A stretch of DNA of 64,000 nucleotides from an uncultured Eubacteriales bacterium (GCA_934643185.1 CAKUBN010000008.1:627-64626), one strand, 5' to 3'. Shown: positions 41,299 through 49,862, numbered from the stretch's first letter. Translations and numbers: made by a program. The notes: a model not told the origin generated them from the letters alone.

Positions 41299-42864
41299 TT
41301 ACGAGTTTTTCACTGTGTCTTTCAGGGGCTCACTTTTTGTGCCGTCTTCGTTGACCTTCTGCATGTTCGGGTAGACGAGCGCAAGGTAGTTGTCGTCTAA
41401 GTGCTTATCGAGGAACATTTGGAACGAGCTTGTAGCCGGGATGCCCTCGGCGCGCTCGTTGGCGCGGGTCAGGGCGGCGCAGGAGATGAGCCCGTCGAAC
41501 AGCATAAACGCGACGAGCAAGATGGTAAGGATAGCGCCCGGGCGCTTCGGGATCTTTTCGATCATGCGCGACATGGCGGGGTAGATCTCTTTGATCCAGA
41601 TGAGACCGAGCGTGCCCCAGATGAGCGCGAACATCAAATTTGTGCGGCCGTCAATGTTGAACGGCGTGCCGCTGTAATCCCACGAAACGGTGCCGAACAG
41701 CATCTCCTGTCCCCAGCTGCACAGGTACTCGAACGCCGCACCGATGATGCCGCTGGCGACGAAAATGACGATGTCGTCCTGCTTATAGAGCTTATAGAGG
41801 CACAGCGTGATGATGGCCGCGCCGCCGCCGTAAATGGGCTGGAACGGGCCGTACACGAGACCCACACGCAGCTCGATCTGATGCGCGATGAAGAACGCCC
41901 AGCATTCCTCGAGCACAAAGCCGGCAAGGCAGCCGATGAAGAAGATCCAGAAAAGCTTTGTAAAGTTCATGCCGAACGCGAACGGGCGGTCCTCCGGGTT
42001 CTCGAACGTAGCTTCGTATTCGTAACGGTTGCGCTTCCAGCGATCGGCAGAGCGTTTTTTGCGCGCTTCCGTCGTGATGCGGAACGCCTTGAGCTCTTTT
42101 TCGTACTGCTCGTTCGTCATTTCCGGCGAGGCGTTCATGAAGCGGCGCTTTAAAAAGTTCGATTTGTTGAGCAGTGCCGTGTAGTTTTCGTCGGCGGTCT
42201 TCTGCGCTTCCTGAAGCTTCTTTTGCAGGTCGAGATCGTCGATGGCTTCCGCAGCGCCAATGGCACCGCCTGTGACGGCGTTGCCGAGCGCATCCCGCGC
42301 CTCGCGCACGCGGTCGCCGAGCTCGGACAGAAGCTTAAACTGGTGGTTTAAGCGCTGCACGGTGATGGACGTGATGATGATGTCGAGCAGCATGACACCG
42401 AGGACGGCGTAGAGGATGACCCAGCCGACGGTGCGGTTCACGTAGTGTAAAAGCGAGGTGAGCACCGGCACGACGAACATCAGAATAAACGAGAAGCACA
42501 CGCCGCGCACGACGGCGATGGGCACGGAAACATAGCCCCTGATGTTCCACTTGAATTTGGAATAATCACGCATGCGGATGTGCGTCGTTTTGCGCAGCAG
42601 CCACGCGAACGTGAACTCCACAAGGAAGCTTGAAAGCAGGCAGAAAAACAGCGTGGCCACAAACGACGTTTGCCAGTGCAGCGCCGTCAGCGCCGCCCAC
42701 GGCAGCGCGATCATCAGGCCGTATTGCGGGCAGTACGGGCCGTTCAGCATGCCGGGGTTTTTGAATTTTCGGTATACCATGCCGATGTACCCCACCTCTG
42801 CGACCCAGCCGCAGAAGGAAGCGAGCACAAAGTACCACAAGAAAAGCCAGACCTTGTATGCCAT
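41299..42864 (-). CDS. Membrane protein with two CmpB/DUF1113-like ('putative ABC-transporter type IV') modules separated by a charged coiled-coil linker
   Basis: Module 1: FCGWVAEVGY...LNGPYCPQYGL. Module 2: GFVLEECWAFF...VYGPFQPIYGGGA. Residues about 175-300 are Lys/Glu/Arg-rich. The family call is from recall. Confidence 0.65.
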   Translation of the reverse strand: MAYKVWLFLWYFVLASFCGWVAEVGYIGMVYRKFKNPGMLNGPYCPQYGLMIALPWAALTALHWQTSFVATLFFCLLSSFLVEFTFAWLLRKTTHIRMRDYSKFKWNIRGYVSVPIAVVRGVCFSFILMFVVPVLTSLLHYVNRTVGWVILYAVLGVMLLDIIITSITVQRLNHQFKLLSELGDRVREARDALGNAVTGGAIGAAEAIDDLDLQKKLQEAQKTADENYTALLNKSNFLKRRFMNASPEMTNEQYEKELKAFRITTEARKKRSADRWKRNRYEYEATFENPEDRPFAFGMNFTKLFWIFFIGCLAGFVLEECWAFFIAHQIELRVGLVYGPFQPIYGGGAAIITLCLYKLYKQDDIVIFVASGIIGAAFEYLCSWGQEMLFGTVSWDYSGTPFNIDGRTNLMFALIWGTLGLIWIKEIYPAMSRMIEKIPKRPGAILTILLVAFMLFDGLISCAALTRANERAEGIPATSSFQMFLDKHLDDNYLALVYPNMQKVNEDGTKSEPLKDTVKNS

Positions 42865-43081
42865 GCGTGCATCTCCTTAATACGCCGGGCGGTCTATAAA
42901 CGCCCGGAAAAGTATAGAACAGTATAGCATATTTCGCGGTTTTCAACAATACTTCTGCGAGAAAAATTGTCGGAAACCGCGGCAAAACAGGAAATTTGCA
43001 GAAACATGGGAAACGAGAATTGATTTTTAACGATATATGTGATACGCTGTTAAAAGAAATACAGGAAAGGTGCGAATCCAT

Positions 43082-43516
43082 ATGAAAAAGTTACTGGAAG
43101 AGTTCAAGCAGTTCATTGCGCGCGGCAACGTGCTGGACATGGCCGTCGGCGTCGTTGTGGCATCTGCGTTCACGGCGATCGTCAACGCGGTCGTCAGCGG
43201 CTTATTGACGCCGATCATCGGCCTGCTGCTCCCGGACACGACGTTTGCGGAATGGGCGCCGGGCGGCTTTGCCATCGGTGAAGTCATCAACGCGGTCATC
43301 ACGTTCTTCATCACGGCTGCGGCGGTTTTTGCCATTGTGAAAGCGGTAAACGCCGTGTCGAACCTGAAGAAAAAGCCGGAAGAGGAAAAGGCGGCCCCCA
43401 CCACGAAGACCTGCCCTTATTGCCTGATGGACGACGTGAAGATCGGCGCGACGAAGTGTCCGCACTGCGCGTCTGTGCTTCCGCCGGAGGACGAAGAGGA
43501 AAAGAAGGACGCATAA
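43082..43516 (+). CDS. mscL: Large-conductance mechanosensitive channel with a C-terminal zinc-ribbon extension
   Basis: MKKLLEEFKQFIARGNVLDMAVGVVVASAFTAIVNAVVSGLLTPIIG is canonical MscL. The tail is KTCPYCLMDDVKIGATKCPHCASVL. Confidence 0.9.
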   Translation: MKKLLEEFKQFIARGNVLDMAVGVVVASAFTAIVNAVVSGLLTPIIGLLLPDTTFAEWAPGGFAIGEVINAVITFFITAAAVFAIVKAVNAVSNLKKKPEEEKAAPTTKTCPYCLMDDVKIGATKCPHCASVLPPEDEEEKKDA

Positions 43517-43728
43517 TATCTCAGCTATACATACGCGGCTCTGCGGTGCTTTCATGCGCAGAGCCGCGCTTTCTTTTTATTGTCCGAAGGACTATATCAT
43601 CCGGCGCAAGCCGGATATCATTGCGTAGCAATATCATTCGCCGACAGGCGAATATAATTAAGGCGCACTTTCTAAGAGAAAGTACGCCTTAAAAAATACG
43701 CTGTTCTTATGTTTTGCTTAAAGCAAAA

Positions 43729-44550: not shown

Positions 44551-44610
44551 GGTGAACTCCTCCTGTGGTTTTGAAATCTGACTCCATTATACAAGGGTAT
44601 TTGCAAAAAA

Positions 44611-45369
44611 TCAATGGAATTTTCGTAAAAAGCCGAGTTTTAATTGGTTATTATCGCCCTCTTTTTCCATTTCGGTAGCGGGGTTCGTAAATTCCTTCAG
44701 GCGCGCCGCATAGGCTTCTTCAAGCGCGTTTTCAAAGGGGAGCGGTTTGACTTCGGCGCCGATCAGGTGTAATAGATAGCGCGTGAACGCGGGATTCATG
44801 GTGAGAAGCGGCCCCACAAGGTACGTGCCGAAAAAGTTGTGCGTGTGCACGCCCTCTAATTTGGAGCTTTTATTGAGCCCCATGCCGCGCTCGGCCTTGG
44901 CAAAATAGTAAGCGCTGTTGTCGCCGTAGGCCATGGTGAACTGCGTTTTGCAGCCGAGCAGCTGTATGTCTTGGAAAGTTCCGAGGAAGTTGCCATTATA
45001 GCGATGGTTGTAGTCCCGCACGGCGTAAAGGTCGAAAAGGTCAAGCCCCTGTATGGTGCGGCCGCCGTCCCGAATCTCGCGGAACAGGATCTCTACGGCG
45101 TTGCCGGTGAAAAGAAAGCAGCGCCCTTTTTCAATTTGCGCTGCAAGCTGTGCTTTGTACGGCAGCAGCTTTTCGATGACTTTTTCCTGCGTGTGCTCGG
45201 ACATGGAGCCGAGGTAGACAAGGTCAACGGGATGGTTTACAAACTGCGGCGTTTCATAGAGCGCGGTCTCGATGAATTCCGCTTCGGGCAGGCAGGCCTT
45301 TAATAGCAGTACGTTGCCGTAATCGCCGAAGAGATTGCAGCACTCGGGAAATAAGATCTCAATTTTCAT
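44611..45369 (-). CDS. GatD-like CobB/CobQ-type (GATase_3) protein, copy 1, apparently lacking the Cys/His nucleophile pair
   Basis: MKIEILFPECCNLFGDYGNVLLLK...FLFTGNAVEIL...FGTYLVGPLL aligns by eye with GatD (NLYSDIGN...ICGGYQFLG...GTYLHGPIL). Its ATG overlaps the murT-like stop by 11 nt. Confidence 0.8.
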   Translation of the reverse strand: MKIEILFPECCNLFGDYGNVLLLKACLPEAEFIETALYETPQFVNHPVDLVYLGSMSEHTQEKVIEKLLPYKAQLAAQIEKGRCFLFTGNAVEILFREIRDGGRTIQGLDLFDLYAVRDYNHRYNGNFLGTFQDIQLLGCKTQFTMAYGDNSAYYFAKAERGMGLNKSSKLEGVHTHNFFGTYLVGPLLTMNPAFTRYLLHLIGAEVKPLPFENALEEAYAARLKEFTNPATEMEKEGDNNQLKLGFLRKFH

Positions 45370-46741
45370 CGGTTGCCTCCTTGGCGCGCGCCATCAGGCG
45401 GTCGCGGGTCTGCTCAGCATCGGCGCGGGTGAACACGGCGTGCAGAATGTAAACGCGCTCAACGTTTTTCAAATCGACGAGCGCCACGGCGTCCTCCGGC
45501 TTTTCGGCGCAGCGGATTTTCTCCTGCGGAATGCCGGCGAGCAAAGCGCGCATTTGGTAATCGTAGCAGCGGCTGCCGACGTTGACAAGCTGACGCACAC
45601 AATCGGTATTCAAAAATTCGTAGTCCGCTTCGTAGAGCCACGCGGTGTTTTCCGAGGAATGCGCCGCGTCGTGCTGGTCGTAGTTCATGAGCACGACGGC
45701 ACAGGGGATATTCTGCTCTGCGATGAACTCGAACACGCGCGAGCTTGCGATGGGGCTTTGGCCTTTGGCCAGGCAAAGCACGATCTCTTTGTTACCGGCT
45801 GTTTGAATGTCGTAGCGCGTGCGGGTGAGCTCCGCTTTTTCGAGCGAGGACGCGATCTGCTCCATGGAAAGCCCGAGCGTTTTCAGCAGCGTGACAGCGG
45901 TGAGCTCGTTATAAAGATCGGTGATGTTTTTGCCGAGCAGGCGGTAGGTCTCCTCCCCCTGCGGCGCGGAAAGCGTAAAACGCATGGCGGTTTGGTCGAC
46001 GGCTTTCACCTCATAATCGATGCGCGGCGAGCCGTAATCGCAGTTTGGGCAGTGCGCGCGGCCAATGTGGTTATACCGCAGAAAGCGATAGGAAAGCGGC
46101 GCGCCGCACTGCGGGCAGGCGGTGATGTCCCGCACAAGGTTTGGGCGGGCGGCCTTGTCGCGCGGGAGTTCGTCAATGCCGAAATACACGCGCGGGTTCT
46201 GCGGCTTCAAATGGCTCGTGATGAGGTCGTCGCCGTTTAAAATGAGCGTGGCTTTGTCGTTCAGGTTTTTGTTTAGAAGGTCGGCGATGAATTCCACGTT
46301 TGCGTTGCGGTCCAGTGCATCGCGGCAGAGATTGGTGCAGACGAAGTAATCCGGCTGAATGTAGGAGAGGATCTTTTCCGCCGAGCGTTCGTCAAACTCA
46401 AAAATAGCCAGGTCGTGCTTCGGGTCGCCGAAAAAGGTGGAATCCGCAATGAGCGCCGAGGCGATGCCCGTGTTGACGTTTGCGCCGAAGCGGTTGCAGA
46501 CGTATTCCACATGGTTATCCGTTAGAATATCCTCCGTCAGGTTGCAGACCGTGGTTTTGCCGTTTGTGCCGGCCACCATGACGACGGTTTTCGGGCGCGG
46601 CATGCGGCCCAAAAAATCCGGGCACAAAATAATGGCCCAAGAACCCGGCATGGATGTGCCCTTTCGCCCGATGAGCTTTAAAACGCGCGCCGTGCATTTG
46701 GCAAAAAACAGGGCAAAATAAAAGCGAAATGATTTTTTCAA
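45359..46741 (-). CDS. MurT-like Mur-ligase-family protein (Mur_ligase_M, Cys4 ribbon, DUF1727 C-terminal domain), copy 1
   Basis: ORF 45359..46903 trimmed to the TTG at 46741, 6 nt after GGAGG and in register with the paralog start. GRKGTSMPG, P-loop AGTNGKTT, FEFDERS, NLCRDALDR, CPQCGAPL...HCPNCDY and ...ENTAWLYEADYEF. Confidence 0.85.
   Translation of the reverse strand: MKKSFRFYFALFFAKCTARVLKLIGRKGTSMPGSWAIILCPDFLGRMPRPKTVVMVAGTNGKTTVCNLTEDILTDNHVEYVCNRFGANVNTGIASALIADSTFFGDPKHDLAIFEFDERSAEKILSYIQPDYFVCTNLCRDALDRNANVEFIADLLNKNLNDKATLILNGDDLITSHLKPQNPRVYFGIDELPRDKAARPNLVRDITACPQCGAPLSYRFLRYNHIGRAHCPNCDYGSPRIDYEVKAVDQTAMRFTLSAPQGEETYRLLGKNITDLYNELTAVTLLKTLGLSMEQIASSLEKAELTRTRYDIQTAGNKEIVLCLAKGQSPIASSRVFEFIAEQNIPCAVVLMNYDQHDAAHSSENTAWLYEADYEFLNTDCVRQLVNVGSRCYDYQMRALLAGIPQEKIRCAEKPEDAVALVDLKNVERVYILHAVFTRADAEQTRDRLMARAKEATDEN
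46617..46684. repeat. Left arm of a 68-nt inverted repeat shared by the 5' ends of the two murT paralogs
   Basis: The reverse complement of 46617..46684 matches 47348..47415 at 62 of 68 positions by my manual alignment. The 35-nt stretch atgccgggttcttgggc(c/t)attattttgtgcccgga matches at 34 of 35 positions, synonymous sites included. Confidence 0.8.
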
Positions 46742-46819
46742 GGGTTTCCTCCAATTTTGAATGTGAAGATGTAAAGGCGTGCCGCACGGCGAGAAACACA
46801 AGGTGCGGTATCGGCAAAA

Positions 46820-46848
46820 ATTATAGCACTGCATGCACAAATAGTCAA
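46820..46848 (-). promoter_or_regulatory. Strong consensus-like promoter for murT-like copy 1 (TTGACT, 17-nt spacer, TGcTATAAT)
   Basis: The reverse strand reads ttgact-atttgtgcatgcagtgc-tataat. The -35 is at 46848..46843 and the -10 at 46825..46820. Confidence 0.6.
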
Positions 46849-46866
46849 TACTTGCTCTTTTTGCCA

Positions 46867-46895
46867 TTAAGAATGCAGCACAGATTGGGTATAAT
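46867..46895 (+). promoter_or_regulatory. Candidate promoter for the XRE-murT2-gatD2-glycosylase operon (TTAAGA, 17-nt spacer, TATAAT)
   Basis: TATAAT at 46890..46895. The -35 (TTAAGA at 46867..46872) is weak. Confidence 0.3.
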
Positions 46896-46934
46896 GAAAA
46901 CAAAAATCGGGAAGTGCGGAAAAAGAGGAAGCGA

Positions 46935-47285
46935 ATGAAAAATTTTTTGGGTGAAAAAATCAGACAATATCGCGTGGAAAACGGGCTGACGCAGCGCCAG
47001 TTTGCGGACCGGTGCGATTTGGATGAGTTTTATATCAGCCGCATAGAAAACGGAAAACGCACACCGGGCAGAAAGGCGCTGATTCAAATCGCGAATGCCA
47101 TGCAGATCTCGGTGGATTCTTTGCTGCAGACGGAATCAAACGCCGCTTTTCAAAGCGAATACGCACGCTTTATGCAGGAATTTGAAATTTGCTCCGCAGA
47201 GCTTTCAGCCGAAGACAAGGAGTATATTCTGGATACATTAGAGCTGCTGCGCAGACGCTTTTTTAAGATCGATCGGAAGGAATGA
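46935..47285 (+). CDS. XRE-family helix-turn-helix transcriptional regulator
   Basis: ATG at 46935 after AGAGGAAG. FLGEKIRQYRVENGLTQRQFADRCDLDEFYISRIENGKRTPGRKALIQIANAM. Its stop overlaps the murT2 ATG (ATGA). Confidence 0.85.
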   Translation: MKNFLGEKIRQYRVENGLTQRQFADRCDLDEFYISRIENGKRTPGRKALIQIANAMQISVDSLLQTESNAAFQSEYARFMQEFEICSAELSAEDKEYILDTLELLRRRFFKIDRKE

Positions 47286-48667
47286 AGAAAATGAAACGAA
47301 ATTTACGCTTTTATTTTGCGCTGATGTTCGCCCGCGGCACAGCGCTTGTTTTAAAGCTCATCGGCAGGAAGGGTACGTCCATGCCGGGTTCTTGGGCTAT
47401 TATTTTGTGCCCGGACTTTATCGGGCGCATGCCGAAGCCGAAGAAGATCATCGGCATTACGGGTACAAACGGCAAAACGACCGTCTCGAATATGATCGAG
47501 GACGTTCTGGAGGATAACGGCATTGAGTTTATGTGCAACCGCTCCGGCACGAATGTGGCGACCGGCGTGGCTTCCACGCTCATTGCGAACAGCCATTTCT
47601 TCGGCAAGCCGAAGTGCGACCTTGCGGTGTTTGAGCTGGACGAGCGCTCCTCACCGAACATTTACCCCTACATGCAGCCGGACATCGTGCTGTGCACGAA
47701 CATTTTTCGCGATTCGTATAAGCGCAATGCGCACGCGGAGTTCATCCTCGACATTTTGAATAAAGAGATCCCGAAGGGCACAAAGCTCGTCTTAAACGGC
47801 GACGACCCGCTGTGCAGCTCCATTAAGCCTGAAAACGACCGCGTGTATTTCGGCATTGACCACCTTGACACGGACAAAAAAGCATGCGACAATATCGTAA
47901 ATGATGTGCCTGCCTGCCCGGTTTGCCACGGCCCGCTCGTGCACGATGTGGTGCGCTACCATCATATCGGCCGCGTGCACTGCGAAAACTGCGGCTACCG
48001 CTCGCCGGACATCGACTACCTTGCAACGGATATCGACACGAAGAGCATGAAGATGAACGTGGAAGAGGGCGGCAAAAAATCGGAGTATCCGCTTTTGAAC
48101 AGCACGAATATCAATATCTACAATTCCCTTGCCGCCATTGCGACGCTGCGCGAATTCGGCCTTTCCGAAGAGAAGATCCGCCGGTCCATGGAGAAAATGG
48201 GCATCAGCGAGACGCGTTACTCCGAAAAAGAAATGAACGGCAGAAAGTACATTCTGCACCTTGCAAAGGGCCAGAACCCCATTGCGTGCTCCCGCGCGTT
48301 TGAGAATATCCGCAATGCGCCGGGCAAAAAGTCTGTTGTAATGTTCCTTGACGACTATTTTGATGCGCGCCACACCGTGGAGAACACCGCGTGGTTCTAC
48401 GATACCGATTTTGAATTTTTGAACGACCCGAGCATCGTGCAGGTCGTCATTGCCGGTGCGCGCCACCACGATACGTATGTGCGCACGCTTTTGGCCGGTG
48501 TGCCGGCGGAAAAAATCGTGCACATGCGCGACGAAAACGATACGCCCGCGGCGGTCTCGAAAGAAGCGGACACGGTGTTCATTTTGTATGACGTGTATAC
48601 CATCCGTTTGGCGAATGACATTCGCGATAAGATGATCGAGCGTGAAAAGGAGGGCGAAGCGAAATGA
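47282..48667 (+). CDS. MurT-like Mur-ligase-family protein, copy 2
   Basis: 461 aa. GRKGTSMPG, TGTNGKTT, FELDERS, NIFRDSYKR, CPVCHGPL...HCENCGY and ...ENTAWFYDTDFEF. By eye, roughly half to 60% aa identity to copy 1. Confidence 0.85.
   Translation: MKKMKRNLRFYFALMFARGTALVLKLIGRKGTSMPGSWAIILCPDFIGRMPKPKKIIGITGTNGKTTVSNMIEDVLEDNGIEFMCNRSGTNVATGVASTLIANSHFFGKPKCDLAVFELDERSSPNIYPYMQPDIVLCTNIFRDSYKRNAHAEFILDILNKEIPKGTKLVLNGDDPLCSSIKPENDRVYFGIDHLDTDKKACDNIVNDVPACPVCHGPLVHDVVRYHHIGRVHCENCGYRSPDIDYLATDIDTKSMKMNVEEGGKKSEYPLLNSTNINIYNSLAAIATLREFGLSEEKIRRSMEKMGISETRYSEKEMNGRKYILHLAKGQNPIACSRAFENIRNAPGKKSVVMFLDDYFDARHTVENTAWFYDTDFEFLNDPSIVQVVIAGARHHDTYVRTLLAGVPAEKIVHMRDENDTPAAVSKEADTVFILYDVYTIRLANDIRDKMIEREKEGEAK
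47348..47415. repeat. Right arm of the 68-nt inverted repeat (see 46617..46684)
   Basis: gttttaaagctcatcggcaggaagggtacgtccatgccgggttcttgggctattattttgtgcccgga. Confidence 0.8.
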
Positions 48668-49365
48668 AAATAGAGATCCTTTTCCCGGAATTCTGCAACC
48701 TGTTCGGCGACGCGTATAACATGGTCTACCTTGAAAAAACGCTGCCGGAAGCGGAGTTTATCCGCACGAAATTCAGCGACGACGTGCGCTTTACCGAAGA
48801 AAAAATGAACCTTGTGTACATGGGCCCCATGACGGAGCGCATGCAGGAGCAGGTCATCCGCAAGCTGATGCCGCTGAAAGAGAAGATCAAAAAAGCCATC
48901 GATGACGGCACGGTGTTCCTTTTCACGGGCAACGCGCTCGAGATTTTCGGCGATTACATTGAAAACGAAGACGGCAGCCGCATTGAGTGCTTAGGGCTTT
49001 ACCGTCTGTATGCCAAGCGCAACATGATGCACCGCCACAACAGCGACTTTGAGGGCGAGTTTGACGGCAACGTCATCATGGGCTTTAAGACGCAGTTCAC
49101 GATGGCCTATACGCCGGATGAATCGCACGGCTTGTTCGTAAAAAACAAGGGCGTGGGCCTCAACAAAAAGGCAAAGTATGAGGGCATCCGCGTGAATAAT
49201 TTCTTAGGCACATACCTTGTAGGGCCGATTTTGGTACTGAACCCGCCGTTTACAAAGTACATTTTGAATTTGATGGGCGCAGGCGACGTGAAGCTTGCGT
49301 TTGAAGCGGAGAACATGGCGGCCTACGAGCAGCGCAAGAAGGATTTTGCCGAGAAGGTGCACTGA
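48664..49365 (+). CDS. GatD-like CobB/CobQ-type (GATase_3) protein, copy 2, apparently lacking the Cys/His pair
   Basis: MKIEILFPEFCNLFGDAYNMVYLEK...FLFTGNALEIF...LGTYLVGPIL. ATGA overlap with murT2. Confidence 0.8.
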   Translation: MKIEILFPEFCNLFGDAYNMVYLEKTLPEAEFIRTKFSDDVRFTEEKMNLVYMGPMTERMQEQVIRKLMPLKEKIKKAIDDGTVFLFTGNALEIFGDYIENEDGSRIECLGLYRLYAKRNMMHRHNSDFEGEFDGNVIMGFKTQFTMAYTPDESHGLFVKNKGVGLNKKAKYEGIRVNNFLGTYLVGPILVLNPPFTKYILNLMGAGDVKLAFEAENMAAYEQRKKDFAEKVH

Positions 49366-49862
49366 TGGTGCAGCATGAGATCCCGCCGGTGTTCGACGAA
49401 AACAGCCGCGTGCTCGTTTTGGGCTCGTTTCCGTCCGTGCAGTCGAGGAAAGCGGCGTTTTTCTACGGGCACCCGCAAAACCGATTTTGGCGCGTGTTGA
49501 GCGCCGTTTTCGGTGAGCCGGTGCCGGGGGATGTTCCCGAAAAGAAGGCATTGTTATTGAAGCATCACGTGGCTTTGTGGGACGTTATTGCTTCGTGCGA
49601 CGTGACGGGTTCGTCCGACGCGAGCATTAAAAACGTCGTGCCGAACGACCTTTCCGTGATCTTATCGGCAGCGAACATCACGCATGTGTTCACAAACGGC
49701 CAGACGGCGCACAAGCTGTACCGGAAATACCTTGCAAATGAGATCAATTTGCCGGAAACGGTTTTGCCGAGCACCAGCCCCGCAAATGCCGCGTGGAGCT
49801 TGGAACGGCTGACGGAAGCGTGGAAGGTTGTTAAGCAGAGTGTACAGCGGAGCGACGAATAA
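49365..49862 (+). CDS. Uracil-DNA-glycosylase-superfamily enzyme (DNA-deoxyinosine/hypoxanthine glycosylase type)
   Basis: VLVLGSFPSVQSRKAAFFYGHPQNRFWRVL...LPSTSPANA. Its ATG shares one nucleotide with the gatD2 stop (TGATG). Confidence 0.85.
   Translation: MVQHEIPPVFDENSRVLVLGSFPSVQSRKAAFFYGHPQNRFWRVLSAVFGEPVPGDVPEKKALLLKHHVALWDVIASCDVTGSSDASIKNVVPNDLSVILSAANITHVFTNGQTAHKLYRKYLANEINLPETVLPSTSPANAAWSLERLTEAWKVVKQSVQRSDE

Follow-up and report, generated by a model that had tools for sequence, protein, structure and literature searches.

Paired MurT-like and GatD-like proteins with a substituted glutaminase triad in an uncultured Eubacteriales bacterium and its clostridial relatives: a candidate amidoligase with a pseudo-glutaminase partner

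Amidation of D-iso-glutamate controls the cross-linking of peptidoglycan and the sensing of wall fragments by NOD1 and NOD2 of the host, and MurT/GatD, the lipid II isoglutaminyl synthase, is an essential antibiotic target. The enzyme is known from Staphylococcus aureus, Streptococcus pneumoniae and Streptococcus pyogenes (PDB 6GS2, 6H5E, 6FQB, 9SQ9). Here we analyze two murT-like/gatD-like gene pairs that lie head to head at positions 44611-49862 of a 64,000-nucleotide stretch of DNA from an uncultured Eubacteriales bacterium (GCA_934643185.1, CAKUBN010000008.1:627-64626), hereafter called the window. In both pairs all three positions of the glutaminase triad are replaced, and the ligase core is conserved.

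In S. aureus, MurT alone is inactive with either donor, glutamine or NH3, and exchange of the catalytic Cys of GatD in the C94G mutant abolishes the glutamine-dependent amidation of lipid II but leaves the NH3-dependent reaction intact at pH 8.5 (Munch et al., 2012; PMC3266927). Likewise, the lipid II amidation activity is severely reduced by the D349N exchange in MurT (Noldeke et al.). The murTgatD genes have been described as "widespread in the Clostridiales" without a dead triad being noted (Morlot et al., 2018). Canonical forms also occur in the Clostridia, since the triad is conserved in C. perfringens (Munch et al.). Full-text searches of the literature found no description of a triad-less variant.

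Glutaminase triad and ligase core of the two modules

All six open reading frames (ORFs) of the locus are present in the window (Table 1). An earlier reading of the sequence, made without database searches and referred to below as the sequence-only reading, had proposed two paralogous modules facing away from each other across 190 bp, each with a Mur-ligase/DUF1727 gene followed by an overlapping GATase_3 gene. The ORFs, the Pfam and NCBIfam matches and the overlaps in both copies bear this out, with about 50% identity between the modules and a spacer of 193 bp. Pfam detects Mur_ligase_M and MurT_C (PF08353, 1e-18 to 1e-22) in both large proteins, GATase_3 in GatD-like 2, HTH_3 in the regulator and UDG in the product of the last gene. 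On the NCBIfam equivalog models, the MurT-like proteins reach 189-209 bits, with 194 and 209 for the two proteins on the MurT model, against a cut-off of 800 (NF045635/NF052464) and the GatD-like proteins 59-68 bits against cut-offs of 400-450 (NF045636/NF052463). As these scores are far below the cut-offs, the proteins are distant relatives of MurT and GatD and not equivalogs.

The AlphaFold model of GatD-like 2 (predicted local distance difference test, pLDDT, 91.8) shows the fold of a class-I glutamine amidotransferase of the CobQ/GatD type with an extra C-terminal helix. In a Foldseek search, ranks 1-9 of its PDB matches are all GatD chains, with template modelling (TM) scores of 0.77-0.84, while PdxT and HisH reach only about 0.58. 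The 13 best PDB matches of the MurT-like 2 model (pLDDT 84) are all MurT chains, ahead of MurF, MurC and pMurC.

To locate the triad, GatD-like 2 was aligned to solved GatD chains using HMMER. Cys94 of S. aureus GatD falls opposite Gly89 and His189 opposite Val186, gap-free between the flanking DG and FG/LG motifs, and the His189 position of copy 1 is taken by Val185. The same pairing is obtained in a MAFFT alignment with 147 diverse relatives, which were drawn from the 168 clusters found at E < 1e-30 in a search of 1.84 billion cluster representatives. In the AlphaFold model a strand spans residues 84-88 and a helix begins at residue 89, which makes residue 89 the elbow position. The third triad residue is contributed by MurT. 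In the numbering of 6gs2_B, a full-length chain, the Asp of GRD-TSW is D349, three residues past DNAAD, and the two are described as separate elements of MurT (Noldeke et al.). In every alignment, the Asn of 'ENTAW' stands at the D349 position in both copies.

All three triad positions are replaced in both copies, Cys by Gly, His by Val and Asp by Asn, and neither a conserved Cys and His nor a MurT Asp is aligned to the catalytic positions. The sequence-only reading had recognized the loss of the whole triad and the change of His to Val, but its other two assignments need correction. It had read Cys to Thr, whereas Thr88 pairs with Ile93 of S. aureus GatD, a position that is T, V or I across the family. 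It had also read Asp to Ser/Thr, having taken the last Asp of DNAAD for the triad residue.

The loss extends throughout the variant family. Among the 147 representatives, the Cys position is Gly in 127, Ser in 13 and Ala in 3 and never Cys, while the His position is mostly Leu (75) or Ile (34), with Val and Thr in 8 each; the one member that bears His is without the Cys, and the two residues occur together in 0/147. Similar results were obtained for the 75 loci in which a GatD-like gene was called, with Gly at the Cys position in 73 and never His at the His position. The MurT position D349 (D355 in S. pneumoniae) is Asn in 66 of 76 loci. In addition, the oxyanion-hole residue Gly60 of S. aureus GatD is replaced by Pro, Ser or Ala, Gly95 by Asn and Gln98 by Glu; Asp19, Gly59 and the glutamine-sequestering Arg128 are kept. 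No canonical GatD motif (CGG or HGP) was found in the rest of the window or in the 95 loci that were fetched.

It is very unlikely that the GatD-like proteins are still glutaminases in which other residues have taken over catalysis, with Thr88 or a position-89 Ser, for instance, serving as nucleophile. Although Thr88 is present in 124/147 representatives and the 13 with Ser could be read in this way, position 88 is Val or Ile in 11 representatives and aligns with Ile93, on which grounds Thr88 was rejected, and position 89 is Gly in the large majority. Moreover, the H189 position, where L, I or V is found, offers neither His nor another general base, the oxyanion-hole Gly is lost as well, and the C94S, C94G and D349N mutants of the S. 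aureus enzyme are inactive or nearly so.

The ligase subunit presents the opposite picture. With residue roles for ATP, Mg and the acceptor carboxylate taken from Morlot 2018 (S. pneumoniae numbering), G58, K59, T60, G83, N85, E110, D112, E113, N132, R135, D136, R140, R304 and K321 are invariant in 76/76 loci and in both copies, as are all four Cys of the Cys4 ribbon. N273, N322 and P323 are kept in 75, 74 and 73 of the 76 loci, respectively. The GTNGKTT P-loop and the E.DE motif are retained in both copies, in line with what had been noticed from the sequence alone. Family-specific changes, namely D355 to N (66/76), E201 to D, Q137 to S, G142 to A and E143 to H (73/76), cluster at the GatD interface and along the proposed ammonia path. 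The triad loss, the invariant ligase core and the fold matches support the earlier proposal of a ligase with a pseudo-glutaminase partner instead of textbook glutamine-dependent amidation.

Distribution, genomic context and origin of the variant family

A scan of one genome per GTDB species with a 14-sequence alignment as the query found the variant in at least 581 species-level genomes, nearly all of them Clostridia. Among the matches listed, the carriers include Acutalibacteraceae, Oscillospiraceae, Neglectibacter, Anaeromassilibacillus, Coprococcus catus and many uncultured small-genome lineages. Besides C. catus, the cultured species Neglectibacter timonensis, Anaeromassilibacillus senegalensis and Acutalibacter caecimuris carry the variant. 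The clade is Clostridia-wide and includes abundant gut Oscillospirales and Lachnospiraceae.

The gene order is always murT-like followed by gatD-like, and the two genes are adjacent in 68/75 loci according to a crude ORF caller. Four single-chain fusions of 698-758 aa (P0127, P0132, P0165, P0233) combine a MurT-like part at the N-terminus with a GatD-like part at the C-terminus that is without the triad. The two subunits evolve as an inseparable, obligate pair. The loss of catalytic residues could be taken as a sign that the pairs are decaying relics without function, but this is hardly credible: ORFs are intact in at least 581 species-level genomes, the ligase core is invariant, many GatD-like positions are 90-100% conserved, genomes that are reduced have not lost the pair, which also persists in fused form, and its genes have translationally coupled junctions and good promoter-like sites.

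Neighboring genes, annotated by inspecting representative sequences, fall into three contexts. In a large group of uncultured Clostridia, the pair is flanked by aspS, mnmA and a small ORF on one side and by rlmN, a PP2C phosphatase (stp), a PASTA kinase (prkC), rsgA and rpe on the other; this arrangement is found in many genomes, one of them of 1.57 Mb. The pair lies directly upstream of the rlmN-PP2C phosphatase-PASTA Ser/Thr kinase-rsgA-rpe series in loci L021, L023, L039, L040, L047, L051, L053, L057, L058, L060 and others. The pair thereby belongs to the conserved cluster of the PASTA kinase, a kinase that senses the cell wall. In another group, a polysaccharide deacetylase and a cysteine desulfurase adjoin the pair. 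In the Oscillospirales, a sugar-phosphate-isomerase-like TIM-barrel gene is adjacent in 27/84 loci and also follows copy-1-type pairs whose other flanks differ. This gene (AP_endonuc_2/xylose-isomerase-like), which gives generic family matches only, is located either divergently upstream or co-directionally downstream of the pair, e.g., in L084 and L091-L093. It is a recurrent neighbor in this order and at most a candidate for a functional link with the pair.

Taken with the lack of a PADLOC match, these contexts argue for a core envelope function and against a mobile or defence role, with the glycosylase gene of the window as a passenger. An anti-phage defence system was rejected, as the MurT-like, GatD-like and uracil-DNA glycosylase (UDG) proteins have no PADLOC match, the XRE protein matches only generic helix-turn-helix (HTH) models and the neighborhoods are of the housekeeping type.

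The pair might instead have left peptidoglycan for a different substrate, for instance some other polymer of the envelope, a cofactor or a peptide, with only the MurT/GatD architecture being kept. The scores far under the equivalog cut-offs and the recurrent isomerase-like neighbor in the Oscillospirales would fit such a shift, as would the names given by NCBI to family members, which are only 'DUF1727 domain-containing protein' or 'hypothetical protein'. We nevertheless consider it improbable, given that the MurT-specific N-terminal motif, the acceptor-binding G-x-N85, the Cys4 ribbon and the K(GQ)NP loop are all kept, that solved MurT and GatD chains rank ahead of MurF, MurC and pMurC as structural matches, and that part of the family adjoins the cell-wall-related PASTA kinase and polysaccharide deacetylase genes.

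Two loci of the Acutalibacteraceae type contain lysine riboswitches no more than 1-3 kb away from the pair (L008, 9056-9228, plus strand; L010, 7172-7345, minus strand). They control neighboring genes and probably represent coincidental synteny.

The two copies of the window are old paralogues. They share 49% identity in GatD-like (E 6e-74) and 51% in MurT-like (E 5e-169), and in a neighbor-joining tree rooted on three canonical MurTs they fall into different deep clades of the variant family. Copy 1 clusters with Neglectibacter sp. X58 and two metagenome loci, L091 and L093 (62-68% identity); L094 branches as the sister of these, and Coprococcus catus is part of the same wider clade. Copy 2 clusters with Acutalibacteraceae. 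Close relatives of the host species have copy 2 only, in the same place between the isomerase and glycosylase genes. A recent tandem or inverted duplication is ruled out by the identity of about 50% and the separate deep clades, and the term 'duplicated' used in the sequence-only reading, correct in that the modules are paralogues, is therefore misleading. Since relatives carry copy 2 alone and the copies belong to separate clades, the head-to-head layout is best seen as a juxtaposition of old paralogues, which on phylogenetic grounds would have arisen through either an ancient duplication with differential loss or a transfer. An artefact of assembly is excluded by the 23 independently assembled contigs of the same species that show the dual arrangement. 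Copy 1 has a strong, constitutive-looking promoter and copy 2 lies behind an XRE regulator; the copies probably differ in regulation or fine specificity.

Predicted reaction and nitrogen donor

By analogy with MurT/GatD, each module would form a two-subunit enzyme, in which the MurT-like protein would act as an ATP-dependent Mur-type ligase that activates a carboxylate as an acyl-phosphate. By homology, this carboxylate would be the alpha-carboxyl of D-isoglutamate on a lipid-linked peptidoglycan precursor. Lipid II or a related lipid-linked precursor is the likely substrate because MurT-specific features are kept, including the acceptor-binding Asn85 and the N-terminal G(R/K)xG(T/S)xxPG motif, which the alignments show to be common to variant and canonical MurT. 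The GatD-like protein keeps the fold of GatD along with most of the residues that canonical GatDs have in common. With the Cys, the His, the oxyanion-hole Gly and the MurT interface Asp lost, the complex should be unable to make ammonia from glutamine.

Free ammonia is plentiful in the gut. Our preferred, though tentative, reading is that the complex is an active amidoligase of the lipid II type that performs glutamine-independent amidation with free ammonia as the donor, and that the dead GatD is kept as an obligate scaffold which MurT would need for activity. Retention of the dead subunit would be explained by the inactivity of MurT without its partner, as seen in S. aureus (PMC3266927). That NH3 serves as the nitrogen donor is suggested above all by the S. 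aureus GatD C94G mutant, which carries the same substitution (PMC3266927).

Several observations weigh against this reading. The S. aureus enzyme cannot use NH4+ at neutral pH (PMC3266927), so that the variant would need adaptations. The replacement elbow motif L-x-T-G-N-A-x-E is conserved, with N in 135 and E/D in 143 of the 147 representatives, and Arg124, which corresponds to the glutamine-sequestering residue of S. aureus GatD, is kept in 136. The conservation of TGNAxE and Arg124 suggests a new ligand-binding job for the old glutaminase pocket and not a mere scaffold. In addition, the MurT-like loop corresponding to S. pneumoniae 135-143 is changed family-wide from RDQxDRxGE to RDSxKRNAH, and the DNAAD region is also remodelled, which could mean a different nucleophile or stem peptide. 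In the window the loop reads FRDSYKRNAHAE in MurT-like 2 and CRDALDRNANVE in MurT-like 1, the latter with Asn at the Glu143 position where 73/76 loci have His. A Mg-binding His is found in this loop in classical Mur ligases and is missing from canonical MurT (Morlot 2018). The remodelled loop, together with the conserved elbow and Arg124, leaves room for another donor or nucleophile.

These points could be accommodated if the same complex, acting on the same class of substrate, joined a nucleophile other than ammonia, such as an amino acid, an amino-acid amide or a diamine, to the stem-peptide carboxylate, which we regard as rather unlikely. The former glutaminase pocket, with Arg124 and the new Asn90 and Glu93, would then bind or gate the donor, and the paralogues could differ in donor or acceptor specificity. 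Besides the strongly conserved elbow and Arg124 in a protein that has lost catalysis, the His gained in the remodelled loop (73/76 loci) and the altered DNAAD region, the presence of two deep paralogue clades in one genome speaks for this possibility. Gly, Gly-amide, D-Ala-amide and diamines reportedly occur in nature on the alpha-carboxyl of D-Glu, as Schleifer and Kandler are said to have described in 1972, and we know of no identified enzymes for these substituents. Yet the solved complexes show the GatD pocket far away from the acyl-phosphate site of MurT. The channel between the two is believed to conduct ammonia, and delivery of a bulky donor from the pocket is hard to picture. Furthermore, no peptidoglycan chemistry of the hosts is known to require such a substituent, and the neighborhoods indicate no donor-synthesis gene. 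It is doubtful to the same degree that the variant represents a distinct enzyme class, whose pocket would bind or gate a non-glutamine donor, whose paralogues would differ in specificity and which would modify the stem peptide of dominant gut commensals with something other than an amide derived from glutamine, for instance an amino acid or amine on the alpha-carboxyl of D-Glu.

Clostridial homologues are counted as ordinary murTgatD in the literature, yet they include a large clade with a conserved, glutaminase-dead partner. If the preferred reading holds and ammonia is used, the family would provide a natural case of a pseudoenzyme as an obligate scaffold and would link wall chemistry to gut ammonia. 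If something else is attached, the family would supply the enzymes of a peptidoglycan modification to which none has been assigned. In either case, genome-based predictions of the peptidoglycan chemistry of gut commensals would change.

Organization of the locus and comparison with known systems

The features of the locus are listed in Table 1. MurT-like 1 overlaps GatD-like 1 by 11 nt. Its most likely start is the TTG at 46741; the resulting length of 460 aa is also found in gene calls on other assemblies, and the full ORF has 514 aa. For MurT-like 2, position 47291 is the most likely start, as it lies 9 nt past GGAAGGA and agrees with independent calls on other assemblies; an alternative ATG is present at 47282.

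Table 1. Features of the two-module locus, in window coordinates
Feature	Length	Position	Strand	Sites	Support
Sugar-phosphate isomerase/epimerase-like TIM-barrel gene (AP_endonuc_2)	273 aa	43729..44550	-		directly downstream of copy 1
GatD-like 1, pseudo-glutaminase	252 aa	44611..45369	-	Gly89 (45103-45105) at Cys94 position; Val185 (44815-44817) at His189 position; Asp16, Arg123 kept	NCBIfam GatD models, 59-66 bits vs cut-offs 400-450; 49% identity to copy 2
MurT-like 1	460 aa	45359..46741	-	TTG start after GGAGG; P-loop Lys62; Asn365 (45647-45649) at S. aureus D349 position	Pfam, NCBIfam, alignment to copy 2
Divergent control region	193 bp	46742..46934	.		promoter-like site search
XRE-family HTH regulator	116 aa	46935..47285	+	ATG start at 46935	Pfam HTH_3, 2.8e-14; callers give 116 aa
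MurT-like 2	458 aa	47291..48667	+	P-loop Lys62 (47474-47476); Asn365 (48383-48385) at D349 position, directly after conserved Glu364	Pfam, NCBIfam, alignments, AlphaFold model
GatD-like 2, pseudo-glutaminase	233 aa	48664..49365	+	Gly89 (48928-48930) at Cys94 position; Val186 (49219-49221) at His189 position; Asp16, Gly54, Arg124 kept	NCBIfam, HMMER/MAFFT alignments, AlphaFold model
DNA-deoxyinosine (hypoxanthine) glycosylase, UDG superfamily	165 aa	49365..49862	+		TIGR04274, 143 bits vs cut-off 80; Pfam UDG, 2e-10

The control region contains two back-to-back sigma-70-like sites. On the minus strand, TTGACT-17-TATAAT with an upstream TG is located at 46848..46820 (11/12 matches), and on the plus strand TTAAGA-17-TATAAT at 46867..46895 (10/12 matches). 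No riboswitch or other Rfam family was detected in the 193-bp spacer at gathering or relaxed thresholds. The isomerase-like gene has its own promoter-like site at 44614..44586.

The XRE gene, for which an upstream GTG at 46914 is a possible alternative start, heads the copy-2 operon. This operon had been described as four tightly overlapping genes, and the overlaps are real at the MurT-like 2/GatD-like 2 junction (ATGA) and at the GatD-like 2/glycosylase junction, where the start shares one base with the stop codon (TGATG); the XRE and MurT-like 2 genes, however, are separated by a 5-nt gap. The XRE gene is present on contigs of the same species, but a search of 84 other loci gave no homologue, which rules it out as a conserved regulator of the family; in 6 loci of another clade, an unrelated XRE gene lies upstream of the pair. 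The product of the last gene exceeds the curated equivalog cut-off for DNA-deoxyinosine glycosylase. Its gene is adjacent to the pair in only 10/84 loci, all of them close relatives, and on either side and either strand (on the other side and strand in L010 and L011). A functional link with the pair was rejected on these grounds in favor of local synteny, and the glycosylase is probably an operon passenger and not a conserved partner. The association with the glycosylase gene, for which the sequence-only reading had no explanation, is lineage-specific synteny, and so is that with the XRE gene.

Further features were noted next to the modules. A Gut-1 RNA (Rfam RF01706), which is an orphan motif known from metagenomes of the human gut, lies at 43589-43660 on the minus strand, the strand of copy 1, about 70 nt downstream of the isomerase-like gene. 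Its score of 55.4 bits exceeds the gathering score of 50, but the RNA was not detected beside this gene in 7 other loci checked. The MscL mechanosensitive channel encoded at 43070-43516 (plus strand) is extended at its C-terminus by a segment containing a zinc-ribbon-like CxxC...CxxC motif (TKTCPYC...KCPHC). A multi-pass membrane protein of 521 aa (41299-42864, minus strand) gives no match in NCBIfam, and an identical gene in other assemblies has a precomputed Pfam assignment to PF06541 (ABC_trans_CmpB).

The closest described system is canonical MurT/GatD, with the same two genes in the same order, whose chains are the best sequence and structure matches of the variant. Both share the Mur-ligase central domain, MurT_C, the Cys4 ribbon and the ATP, Mg and acceptor residues of MurT, as well as the GatD fold with its extra C-terminal helix and the residues Asp19/32, Gly59 and Arg128. 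The variant differs from it in the replacement of Cys94 by Gly, of His189 by Val, Leu or Ile, of the oxyanion Gly60 by Pro, Ser or Ala and of MurT D349 by Asn, in the RDSxKRNAH loop at 135-143, in a two-residue insertion in the KNP loop, and in an identity of only 20-30% with scores far under the equivalog cut-offs.

The ammonia-dependent NadE and AsnA, the latter as opposed to the glutamine-dependent AsnB, keep the synthetase chemistry and dispense with a glutaminase where ammonia is available. The evolutionary theme is the same, but in these amidoligases the glutaminase domain is absent, whereas the variant retains a conserved pseudoenzyme subunit. Among the archaea, Methanopyrales and Methanobacteriales have 'MurT-like' ligases (PMC11915815), which are related to MurT and evidently do without a glutaminase. 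They lack any GatD gene, while the variant family is bacterial (Clostridia) and its GatD-like partner is always present and conserved.

The direct functional model is the engineered S. aureus GatD C94G/MurT complex, in which the nucleophile Cys is likewise changed to Gly and both subunits are needed. This mutant keeps His189 and D349 and uses ammonia only at high pH, whereas the natural family has changed several further positions. From these comparisons, the variant would be expected to work like MurT/GatD, but annotation as lipid II isoglutaminyl synthase (glutamine-hydrolysing) would be wrong, because three catalytic features are missing and its scores fall below the equivalog thresholds.

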